Below are positions 12,001 through 15,000 of a DNA stretch of 23,051 nucleotides, in pieces (the first letter of the stretch is position 1; each line of letters opens with the position of its first letter). The position numbers were made by a program. This DNA comes from a virus (taxonomy: Duplodnaviria > Heunggongvirae > Uroviricota > Caudoviricetes), in IMG/VR virus record IMGVR_UViG_2703718769_000008, positions 1 through 23,051 of that record; one strand, given 5' to 3'.

Positions 12001-15000
12001 AATGGTTCGATTTCCAGGTTGAGTGAGACCTTACCTTTGGTTTTCGTGTTCATCACACCTGAAGCGACTTCACTGAGAACTGCGCCGATTTTGGTTTCAA
12101 ATACGCCGCCGTCCAGCTCCCCGATAAATGCCTGCACATCAGTACTGCGTTCGCTAGCCATTTTGCTGCTCCTCATCATATCGACCCTGCAAGGTCGGTT
12201 GGTTTCTCCACAAAACAGAGAAGAACACCTGCGGTGACTGCCGCCCGGATGGATTGGGTTATGAGCCCGTCGTCCGGTGATGCTCTTCTCTGTTTTGTAA
12301 AAAGAGCGGTACCAGCCGGAAGCAAGGGTACAAACTGGTACCGCCAAAGCAGTGGCTGTTGTGGTGGGGTTGTCACTCAGGCGTATGGTCAACCTGACAA
12401 TCCGGTGTCCTCAACGGGGAAATAGTAACCCCGCCATACTTACCGCCGCGCCATTTCGCGGATTACCACAACGCTGAGAGCACTTAGCCAGTTACGGCAC
12501 CACACTTTGTCGCGGCTCCATAAATGCCCTCATCGTTGCACCCTGGTCTCTTCCCAGGCGTCAAACCGAATCGCCACGCTGGTTAGGCGTCTTATCAGCA
12601 TCATCATTGACTTGCACATTCCGGCTACCTGGTTTGTTTGCCCGAGCAAGGAGTGGATTGTCCCCTTTAACGTCCCCAGACCGCTAACGACGCATGTGCC
12701 ATACGCCGTGTTACAACCAAATTTTGTTAGTACCTTGTTTGTTTGTCTGGAAAGAAAGATAAAATGAAGTTGCGCATTATGCAAGTGTTTTTGTTGCGAG
12801 ATATGCAATTTAAAGGGTAATGAAAAGCCACCTTTGGGTGGCTAATTGATGAGGAGGTAAGGGTTAATTGTGTCGCTTAAGGGTTTGTGACTGGCTGATT
12901 AAGACCTTTCCAAAGACCATAAACCGGTGTTCATTTTCGCTGGTAATTCCCCATTCACGGTAAATCTGGTTATCAGAAATCACCAGTAGTTTGTCAGGTA
13001 TCATTTGCAGTCGTTTGACATAAATTTTATCATCAAAACCAAATACATAGATACCATCTCCATCAAACTGATTGATACTGACATCAACGAAGATGAGATC
13101 TCCTGGCTCAATGGTTGGACACATACTGTCCCCACGAACGTTGATAACTTTAATGTGATTGGCTGGCCGTCCGCCAAACATCGATACAGCATTATCAGTT
13201 CTGTATTCAATGGCATGAATCACATCAATGACATCACCGCCCTGGATAAGGCCATTTCCCGCACTGGCACTGACATCCAGCATTTCAATACGGAATACAT
13301 CCTTCACCTGCGCAACATCCTCACTAATACTGTTTTTACATACAGTATTACTTTTGACGTCTGAGGTAAAGAGATCAGCAATATCAACACCTAAGCTCCT
13401 GGCAATATTACTCAGGGCTTGTTCAGTGAATTGTTTCTGCTTACCTGTTTCCAGGCGTGAGATATTCGCCGCATCCACTCCTATTGCTTCAGCGAGATCG
13501 GCGATTTTCATGTTCTTCGCCTGGCGAAGTTGTCTGACTCGGTTTCCTATGTTCATGCGTTTATTACATTTCTTTATTGCGCGTTAAGCAAATCAACTTG
13601 CGCAAAATATTTGCGTGAAATAATATGCTTATCACGCAATATGTGGAGGTAATATGCAATCACCATTACGGAATGTGCGTAAGGCGCACGGATTTACTTT
13701 GCAGCATGTTGCTGCTGGCGTTCAGGTCAATCCAGCGACGCTGAGTCGTATTGAAAGACTGGAACAAATTCCATCTATCGATCTTGCAGAACGTCTGGCC
13801 AATTTTTTTAAGGGTGAAATCAGCGAAATGCAGATTCTTTATCCGGCACGTTTTCAATCTAGCCAAAACCAGAATGGGTTTAAACCACAGGAACAGGAGG
13901 TAAGCCGTGGGTAATCATCACTGGAAAGTGGAAAAACAGCCTGAGTGGTACGTGAAAGCTGTCAGAAAAACTATCGCGGCGTTGCCGGGGGGTTACGCTG
14001 AAGCTGCTGAGTGGCTGGATGTAACAGAGAACGCATTATTTAACCGCCTTCGTGCCGATGGCGATCAGATTTTCCCGCTGGGATGGGCAATGATTTTACA
14101 ACGTGCTGGTGGCACTCACTTCATTGCCGACGCTGTGGCGCAGTCTGCAAATGGCGTCTTTGTGTCTCTTCCTGACGTCGAGGATGTGGACAATGCCGAT
14201 ATTAACCAGCGTTTACTGGAAGTCATTGAACAGATCGGCAGTTATTCAAAACAGATTCGTTCGGCAATCGAAGACGGTGTAGTGGAACCGCATGAGAAGA
14301 CAGCAATTAACGACGAGCTGTACCTCTCAATTTCGAAGCTGCAGGAGCATGCAGCACTTGTCTACAAAATTTTTTGCGTTTCAGAAAGTAATGACGCCCG
14401 CGAGTGTGCAGCTCCGGGCGTCGTGGCGTCGATTGCTTCTGGTTGTGGAGAAACTAACGCATGAACAGTTTAACAACACACTACCGTCGCTCGCAACTGA
14501 TTGCGCTTCCTGTACCGGGTGGAAAAGCGAAGGTGGAGTATTGCTATGCAGTAAATGTACCAGGTGACAGGGAAATTGTAACCCACAGCTTTGCTGAGTG
14601 GGCTGTGGGGGATTTCAACCGGCAGAAGGAGACAGTCCTTTGCGACAAGTTAACCGCTGGTTCAAAGATCACTACGGAGTGCCCGTCAGAGTCATTCGTT
14701 GGGAGCCGGAAACACAACGGGTTATCTACCTCCGTGAAGGCTATGAGCATGAGTGCTTCAGCCCGTTCGAACAGTTTCGTCGTAAATTCAGGGAAATAGA
14801 GGTCGGTCATGAGCACTAAATTAACCGGCTATGTATGGGATGGTTGCGCTGCGTCAGGCATGAAATTATCCAGCGTGGCAATTATGGCCCGCCTGGCTGA
14901 TTTCAGTAATGACGAAGGTGTGTGCTGGCCATCAATTGAAACTATTGCCCGTCAGATTGGCGCGGGGATGAGTACCGTCAGAACGGCTATCGCACGGCTG

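Follow-up and report, generated by a model that had tools for sequence, protein, structure and literature searches.

The interval between the cI repressor gene and yfdP, the first early-left gene, in a lambdoid prophage is an untranslated leader of the early-left (PL) operon, a modular folded RNA of about 590 nucleotides (nt) read from the minus strand. The prophage lies in IMG/VR virus record IMGVR_UViG_2703718769_000008, of which we analysed positions 1 to 23,051 (the window), and is of the N-less SfV/SfII/mEp460/cdtI type; the interval spans positions 12162-12863. From promoter to gene, the six conserved, covarying parts of the leader are a large domain (B1), a long hairpin (LH1), a pseudoknotted domain (B2), an intrinsic terminator (T), a second long hairpin (LH2) and a small hairpin just before yfdP (Table 1). 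What might such a leader do? We lean, with moderate confidence, towards a leaky attenuator combined with a processed small-RNA cassette that keeps the yfdPQR...xis-int operon low, and not towards an N/nut or put site.

Early-left transcription in the N-less lambdoid class, which includes SfV, SfII, ST64B, mEp460, cdtI, the Stx2c phages and LLS, is an acknowledged open point for which only a 'put-like' guess has been offered (PMC12315714). The gap is filled here by defined RNA modules with mapped boundaries, one of which ties the region to the DicF locus. The cassette is of DicF type and had already been glimpsed as the small RNA (sRNA) sRNA-17, and B1, B2 and the LH2 domain, which are new to Rfam 15, are common in E. 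coli genomes, where they are currently annotated as hypothetical proteins.

A non-coding leader of folded RNA

The original prediction held that the interval between the cI terminator with its neighbouring operator-like (OL-like) sites and a first leftward gene starting at 12161 contains no open reading frame (ORF) with a ribosome-binding site or an N-like, arginine-rich N-terminus, and that it might encode a structured RNA instead of a protein. The flanks are laid out as it described, and ORF, family and codon-variability tests across 12162-12863 are all negative. ORFs of at least 20 amino acids (aa) are short and overlap each other on both strands, some reaching 63-92 aa; none in the interval has a Shine-Dalgarno (SD) sequence placed before a start codon, and none matches a protein family of known function in Pfam or PHROG. 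The only PHROG matches, on both strands, are to 'unknown function' families (phrog_33599, phrog_3651 and phrog_38074, matching leader translations at 12176-12376 on the minus strand and 12234-12425 on the plus strand), and these families appear to have been built from spurious ORF calls on conserved RNA-coding DNA. Because short GC-rich elements are often free of stop codons, stop-free frames told us nothing and coding was judged by codon-position variability: no excess of third-position variation was found in any of the five frames tested in homologue alignments, and length differences between homologous elements are not multiples of three. The first real gene after PL is yfdP, not an arginine-rich N or Nun. 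That a small protein, N-like or other, is nevertheless made in the leader from a start other than ATG we find hardly credible: ORFs of 63-92 aa do exist on both strands, annotators have called ORFs in mEp460, Ayreon and SfII, and PHROG 'families' exist for two of them, but the ORFs lack SD-start arrangements, named functions and Pfam matches, lie over one another on opposite strands, show neither an excess of third-position variation nor triplet-length indels, and their conservation is accounted for by RNA helices.

The minus-strand RNA of the interval is much more stably folded than its shuffled counterparts (z = -6.8), and covariation in three alignments bears out its reading as a structured RNA. 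We tested B1, B2 with its pseudoknot, and LH2 with the small hairpin, using 500 shuffles for each as well as slid controls; none of the 500 exceeded the real alignment in percent paired, cells changed on both sides or covariation score, and slid controls were far lower. For B1, 23 of the 24 sequence clusters found (below 93% identity to one another) went into alignment A6, in which 96.9% of cells are paired and 10 pairs show compensatory changes, against 30-40% paired in slid controls; reading the minus strand gives 61 G.U cells and reading the plus strand 4, so the B1 RNA is the PL-sense strand. B2 (alignment A9) has 94.2% of cells paired and 12 compensatory pairs, its pseudoknot helix being 100% paired with 3 compensatory pairs. 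Alignment A3, of 29 sequences from at least 18 genera of Enterobacterales, was drawn from yfdP homologues in 80 other genomes; in it LH2 and the small hairpin reach 97.9% paired cells and 12 compensatory pairs (slid controls 39-58%), and no shuffle reached any of five measures.

These RNAs are not in current catalogues. At gathering thresholds over the whole window, Rfam 15 matched nothing in the leader, its only matches being two tRNAs and STnc100 near 22.4-23.0 kb, and at E<=10 over 11700-13000 it gave just three chance-level matches; B1 matched no Rfam family at E<=10. A tRNA-like nature for B1 or B2 was also considered and dropped, ARAGORN finding only the two tRNAs at 22.4 kb. B1, B2 and the LH2 domain are well-supported structured RNA families that are unlisted in Rfam 15 and that we did not find in the literature searched. 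The interval DNA is conserved at least in part in 4768 of 5426 complete E. coli genomes, as well as in other genera, and occurs in many phage records (mEp460, cdtI, 2H10, Ayreon, Stx2c phages), none of which carries a credible annotation for it. A survey of 79 IMG/VR contigs with identical YfdP divides it into three zones: the promoter-proximal 135 nt track the immunity type, the middle 380 nt are swappable, and the last 185 nt always accompany yfdP. The leader contains five occurrences of two complementary words, CACAAC(AG) and (CU)GUUGUGG, which lie in the LH1 arms, the closing helix of B2 and the LH2 arms (12472-12466, 12364-12358, 12539-12535, 12300-12290 and 12217-12209); GUUGUGG at 12472-12466 pairs either into LH1 or with CCACAAC at 12364-12358, so alternative structures are possible.

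Where does the leader begin? We infer PL at 12784-12756, with a start near 12748, which gives a leader of about 590 nt up to the yfdP start codon at 12161. The same arrangement of -35 and -10 elements around a 17-nt spacer is kept in SfII and Buttiauxella and at loci L089 and L152 of our collection, and a PL-type promoter is retained in relatives with the same or different immunity regions. Ayreon, a phage of the same N-less layout whose record gives E. coli K12 as host, has an annotated promoter at the matching position; a consensus promoter scanner made no call at the inferred PL. At the site equivalent to the cI terminator, the SfII record annotates a rho-independent terminator.

A DicF-type cassette and the unit before yfdP

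Leftward transcription must pass terminator T inside the leader, and the sequence before T is shared with the DicF locus. B2 is near-identical to what immediately precedes dicF in the K-12 prophage Qin (locus L287, 2252-2360) and homologous to the segment just after Pban in phage P1; in Qin an LH-type hairpin stands at the same junction 5' of B2, and DicF follows 3' of it. The window therefore shows the architecture of a DicF precursor: on the sense strand of a prophage operon under repressor control, a long hairpin leads to B2 and then to a rho-independent terminator. The T stem varies in sequence across genera while its T-run, TTTTTAC, is invariant or nearly so, as judged by eye without a pair count, and the T 5' arm UUUGGCGGUACCAGUUUGUAC resembles the DicF terminator arm UUUGGCGGUAUCAGUUUUAC. 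The small-RNA core differs, however, and the T segment is not DicF itself, since the Rfam DicF model (RF00039, 52 nt) has no match at E<=10 in 11700-13000; mEp460 and the 'dicF-like region' of P1 are also negative, and Qin, the positive control, scores 76.7 bits. The GGCGGUA of B2 has a pairing partner in the T 3' arm in both the window and Qin; P1 lacks this pairing, and an antiterminator role for it is unproven.

The Qin dicBF operon yields DicF RNAs of 190 nt and 53 nt (Faubladier 1990, as cited in PMC10448788; Ragunathan et al. 2023). The 190-nt RNA comes from the dicBp transcript with no internal promoter, has a 5' end generated by RNase III and accumulates in stationary phase, and transcripts terminated at DicF (1146 nt) coexist with read-through transcripts (1608 nt) with no known antiterminator (PMC10448788). 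By our own calculation, a length of 190 nt puts the 5' end in the 3' arm of the LH hairpin. By analogy, LH1 is probably the RNase III site that makes the 5' end of a small RNA in the window; LH1 and LH2 share words in both arms, CAAC...GAGCA in the 5' arm and UGCUC...GUUGUGG in the 3' arm.

A relative of this small RNA has been reported. sRNA-17 of E. coli K1 RS218 is a 193-nt RNA from an mEp460-like prophage, identified by rapid amplification of cDNA ends and Northern blotting (PMC7719688, Frontiers in Microbiology 2020), and is higher in stationary phase (PMC7719688). The primer for full-length sRNA-17 (PMC7719688, Table S2) begins at CGTTGTGG in the LH1 3' arm, equivalent to window position 12473, and the 3'-end primer lies on ...GGTACCGCTCTTTT, the U-tract of T, equivalent to 12300. 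The 99% match between mEp460 and the window extends only as far as about 12458, so that the window RNA is a variant with a Qin-type B2. In the sRNA-17 deletion mutant yfdP rose 96-fold and yfdR was also raised (PMC7719688); these are the genes just downstream of the sRNA-17 locus, and a chloramphenicol-resistance (CmR) cassette was left in the mutant (PMC7719688). With the cassette retained and the immediate downstream genes raised, the yfdP effect may be polar, and on the simplest reading it is probably an effect in cis.

The authors' sRNA-17 'promoter fragment' corresponds to window 12473-12722, which is B1 plus LH1. Binding of phospho-ArcA to this fragment was reported (PMC7719688), which would favour a function at the DNA level, such as an internal ArcA-regulated sRNA-17 promoter or recombination or binding sites, as the cause of conservation in place of RNA structure. 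We regard this as very unlikely, given that the fragment consists of B1 and LH1, that compensatory changes and strand-specific G.U pairs across it point to selection on RNA helices, that the homologous Qin operon makes its RNA with no internal promoter and an RNase III 5' end (PMC10448788), and that the electrophoretic mobility shift assays used 20-80 uM protein (PMC7719688).

In the attenuator and small-RNA mechanism that we prefer, PL transcripts would fold module by module; most would end at T, near 12300, and RNase III would cleave LH1 near 12470. The stable product of these two events, some 170 nt long, would correspond to sRNA-17 and to the 190-nt DicF precursor in Qin. A fraction of polymerases would pass T, and in the read-through RNA the U-tract of T would be absorbed into the 25-bp LH2, which would then be processed and/or control yfdP translation. 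The lack of coding signal, the strand, the covarying folds, the homology to Qin and P1 and the conserved terminator rest on the sequence analysis above; the RNA ends and the RNase III dependence of the cassette are taken from papers on relatives; partial read-through at T, the processing of LH2, the regulatory consequence and any role of B1 we infer.

Several points weigh against this mechanism. The expression evidence comes from relatives and not from the exact sequence of the window; the published sRNA-17 has a different cassette between the same end words, and its authors see an ArcA-controlled, promoter-driven, trans-acting sRNA (PMC7719688); and the Rfam DicF model misses the window, whose T segment is not DicF. 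A 13-bp terminator stem, if tight, would need antitermination. B1, the best-conserved module, is left without a function, and the conservation of the LH2 apex, which far exceeds the needs of an RNase III site, is left unexplained.

The part of the leader nearest yfdP is also the most widespread. Nucleotide alignment extends over about 200 nt 5' of yfdP in 18 or more genera, whose YfdP proteins are only about 60% identical, and T, LH2 and the small hairpin are always inherited with the gene. The LH2 stem takes in the U-tract of T, whose partner is an invariant GGAGA (12209-12205). Of the 29 sequences, 27-29 keep the four pairs that the U-tract forms with GGAG(A) (U.G, U-A, U.G, U.G), and the invariant U.G pairs fix the strand. 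The apical domain, CACCGGRYGACGGGCUCAUAACCCAAUCCAYCCGGGCG, is highly conserved across genera. LH2 is probably an RNase III site and/or an operator for yfdP.

A stronger version of the second possibility would make the LH2 apex, and possibly B1, a putative operator for a phage or host RNA-binding protein, for example in translational autoregulation of yfdP by YfdP or YfdQ, or as a nut-like site for an unrecognised antiterminator encoded downstream. Whatever its upstream context, LH2 is strictly inherited with yfdP, the 40 nt of its apex and the GUGGAG after them are about 90-100% conserved across genera against a protein only some 60% identical, and its position before the first gene mirrors that of nutL before N in lambda. 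YfdP, however, has neither an arginine-rich motif nor a known RNA-binding domain, and a perfect stem of 25 bp is a classic substrate for RNase III, a simpler explanation; we think an operator of this kind improbable.

The neighbourhood of this unit is mosaic. Two further modules recur among the leaders L110, L115, L128 and L152, SfII locus L002 (2870-3060) and loci L093 and L149. One is a repeated unit consisting of a hairpin, a U-run and a CACAAC...GUUGUGG long hairpin, of which some leaders have two copies. At loci L012 (1520-2032) and L015 (1536-2039), which have the same yfdP, L012 also having the window's repressor, a moron gene of 167-170 aa on the opposite strand is inserted between the promoter-proximal module and T-LH2. 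In the K-12 element CPS-53 (locus L293, 4748-5104) the whole leader, T and LH2 included, is missing 5' of yfdP by rearrangement; unrelated DNA with GATTTTGACGGGTCAGA-type direct repeats replaces it, and only the last ~25 nt before the yfdP start are kept. CPS-53 can therefore supply no experimental data on LH2.

The B1 domain and antitermination

B1 begins about 40 nt past the inferred PL start. Its invariant single-stranded strings are GGUAGCCGGAAUGUGCAAG, GGCGAUUCGGUKUGAC, a GGGAAGAG loop and a CACCA loop, and covariance model R1 scores 145 bits at this single copy; an R1 search of the window found no second copy on the PR side. B1 is found in Kosakonia, Phytobacter and Klebsiella prophages, in the P1 ban operon between trnI and ban in the operon's sense, and, in phiV10-like podoviruses, at the head of an inverted cassette that sits between the terminase and portal genes and is made up of B1, LH1, tRNA-Arg and a small ORF. 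The majority of yfdP prophages in other genera do not have B1. It adjoins a tRNA gene in 45 of 120 IMG/VR loci and heads at least 15 unrelated first genes, usually with 210-490 nt more non-coding RNA between.

The phiV10-like cassette is carried by E. coli O157 typing phage 9 (locus L086, 1884-2520) and TL-2011b (L003). Its order is a TTGACA promoter-like site, B1, LH1, tRNA-Arg, a hairpin with a U-run, a long hairpin and a second terminator, and it ends with a gp49-like ORF of 123 aa; the 5' end of the tRNA abuts the last base of LH1's GUUGUG. Elsewhere, the other of the two recurrent modules mentioned above, an alternative promoter-proximal one (ACAGCGAACAGGCAGGACGCCCACGAAGTAGCCGCC...GGATGATTCG), stands in place of B1, in SfII, Enterobacter, Scandinavium, Yersinia and Buttiauxella.

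Could B1 or another part of the leader be an antitermination signal, as the original prediction allowed in naming boxA/boxB-like nut motifs and put-like twin hairpins? put RNAs act on RNA polymerase in cis, by way of the beta' zinc-binding domain and without any protein factor. The covariance model R2, which was made from 7 put RNAs and scores HK022 putL at 93, HK022 putR at 46 and HK639 putL at 91 bits, reached at best 8.2 bits in the window and found nothing within 12162-12863 or in 17 related leaders, and a blastn search with putL found HK022, HK75, O276, HK639, phiEt88 and others, with no SfV/mEp460-type phage among them. Of put elements one would expect paired copies, after both PL and PR, but the window holds no second copy of either put or B1. 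A 9-mer, CAUGCGUCG, shared by HK022 putL and B1 is at chance level (E ~5), and the put model has no match there.

The nut motifs fared no better. With one mismatch allowed, boxA (CGCTCTTA / TGCTCTTTAACAA) has 22 matches against 18.6 expected by chance, none of them on the plus strand between cro and 15000. The only boxA-like match in the leader, at 12300-12308, is the T-run of the terminator, and its GCTC is not conserved in the 29 homologues; a boxA reading of GCTCTTTTTACAA (12308-12296) was rejected, only the T-run and ACA being conserved while GCTC varies, and an RfaH ops reading of GGCGGTACCAG and CAGGTAGCCGG was dropped as a partial match to the ops consensus only. Both put and nut can be excluded at the level of sequence and structure. 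Of the options first raised, an operon that does not use antitermination has most support, from read-through without a known antiterminator in Qin dicBF; B1 may have a role in antitermination.

A tentative idea is that B1 represents an undescribed class of phage cis-regulatory RNA, either a protein-independent processive antiterminator or anti-Rho element or a domain sensing a ligand or factor. Were this true, temperate phages of three unrelated morphotypes (lambdoid, P1-like and phiV10-like) would place B1 atop early or moron transcripts, allowing long untranslated leaders bearing tRNAs and sRNAs to be transcribed without N. In its antitermination form, B1 would be a cis-acting RNA of a new class, put-like in action, unrelated in sequence and about 2.5 times larger, which, made just past PL, would modify RNA polymerase to pass T, later terminators and the long untranslated leader. 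Its place about 40 nt past the inferred start suits this, as do single-stranded strings conserved as strongly as a binding surface would be, the many unrelated first genes that it precedes at a distance, and the phiV10-like arrangement, where B1 lies about 80 nt after the TTGACA site and is separated from the first ORF by tRNA-Arg and then two terminator-like hairpins, each with a T-run; the phages that carry it have no N, and the same question has been raised for phage LLS (PMC12315714). We nonetheless consider the idea doubtful. Whereas put occurs as putL and putR, the window has B1 only once, with no counterpart on the PR side; many yfdP prophages carry the T-LH2 unit without B1; in L012 and SfII, with a near-same repressor (few residues differ) and the same PL, other modules replace it; and Qin, without B1, still reads through the DicF terminator (PMC10448788). 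In P1, moreover, B2-T is 2.3 kb upstream of B1, so that B1 cannot act on that terminator, and no terminator lies between B1 and ban.

Layout of the region and comparison with known systems

The positions of the modules and of their neighbours are collected in Table 1. The PF27127 assignment of YfdP comes from precomputed Pfam domains, and a separate Pfam-A scan gave no family; the leftward genes also include a YfbR-like protein, whose Pfam match is weak and under the curated cut-off.

Table 1. Coordinates in the window of the leader modules, signals and flanking genes, from left to right.
Feature	Position	Strand	Details
Integrase gene	8197-9360	leftward	
DUF2303/YfdQ protein gene	10909-11733	leftward	
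yfdP-like gene	11799-12161	-	first of the early-left operon; PF27127; start codon 12161-12159
Small hairpin, SD sequence and yfdP start	12159..12197	-	hairpin 12197-12182 (pairs covary); SD GAGGAG 12174-12169; start codon 12161-12159
LH2 hairpin	12205..12303	-	25-bp lower stem, directly after T; -51.2 kcal/mol, z = -8.6
T, intrinsic terminator	12299..12345	-	13-bp GC-rich stem 12345-12333/12317-12305, CUUUUU 12304-12299; -21.2 kcal/mol, z = -4.7
B2, pseudoknotted domain	12358..12472	-	closed by GUUGUGG/CCACAAC; alignment A9; homology to Qin and P1
LH1 long hairpin	12466..12540	-	GCAACGAUGAGGGCAU...GUGCUCUCAGCGUUGUGG; -33.9 kcal/mol, z = -4.4
B1	12541..12710	-	~170 nt, six helices; alignment A6, model R1
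Putative OL/PL region	12756..12808	-	-35 TTGCAT 12784-12779, -10 TATCTT 12761-12756, 17-nt spacer
Operator-like palindrome 2	12784-12770	-	TTGCATAATGCGCAA; read from sequence
Operator-like palindrome 1	12808-12794	-	TTGCATATCTCGCAA; read from sequence
cI terminator	12819..12843	-	hairpin AGCCACCCAAAGGTGGCT 12843-12826, then T-run; terminator scan
cI (S24/HTH repressor)	12864-13556	-	
cro	13654-13914		
cII-like gene	13907-14464		

Other structured RNAs occur in the same prophages. The window carries tRNA-Arg(UCU) and tRNA-Gly(UCC), followed by a full-length Rfam STnc100 (132 bits), at 22372-22524 and 22825-23024 on the plus strand. Sub-threshold STnc100 matches lie in the Qin helix between dicF and dicB (L287, 2433-2642) and in the P1 ban operon (L085, 2071-2190), and with these matches STnc100 looks like another member of a prophage leader-RNA toolkit. 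On the PR side of mEp460 (L001, 5175-5363), near a Rha/antirepressor gene, there are matches to isrK and C4 antisense RNA (67 and 84 bits), which have no counterpart in the window.

How does this leader compare with known systems? Like the window, the put phages HK022 and HK639 are N-less lambdoid phages with a structured RNA right after PL and then terminators, a functional analogy only; put RNA, at about 70 nt and two stems, is unlike B1, with about 170 nt and six helices. The lambda N leader contains nutL and an RNase III-sensitive hairpin. As in the window, a long RNase III-type hairpin precedes the ribosome-binding site of the first gene in the lambda PL leader, and the early-left transcript contains a terminator, but the window has no N-like protein and no conserved boxA or boxB.

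The P1 ban operon is built from the same modules, B2 with a terminator, an LH-type hairpin and B1, in the operon's sense and with compensatory changes. Unlike in the window, their order is shuffled, tRNA and protein genes lie between them, and B1 is far from the promoter, directly before ban. GenBank AF234173 lists three tRNA genes, tciABC and a 'dicF-like region' in the P1 ban leader. At this locus (L085, 700-1140 and 3001-3189), B2 and the terminator come directly after Pban, the LH-type hairpin, around 1054-1140, precedes tRNA-Asn, and the sequence after B1, UUUUCUGGUGAUGAC, is similar to the DicF 5' end UUUCUGGUGACG.

Qin dicBF shares with the window an early operon under repressor control, in a lambdoid element, with a lengthy untranslated part in which an LH hairpin, B2, a terminator hairpin and another long helix lead to the next gene. 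The 53-nt DicF core of Qin is replaced in the window, and the helix after the terminator differs in sequence between the two; the Qin cassette lies behind three small genes (ydfABC) and has no B1 before it, whereas in the window the cassette comes directly after PL, past B1.

The sRNA-17 locus, finally, lies between cI and yfdP as in the window, on the same RNA strand and with the same end words, CGUUGUGG at the 5' end and the GGUACCGCUCUUUU terminator at the 3' end; what lies between them is a different cassette, where the window has the Qin-type B2. The comparison suggests reinterpreting the published, virulence-linked sRNA-17 as a processed fragment of a prophage leader.

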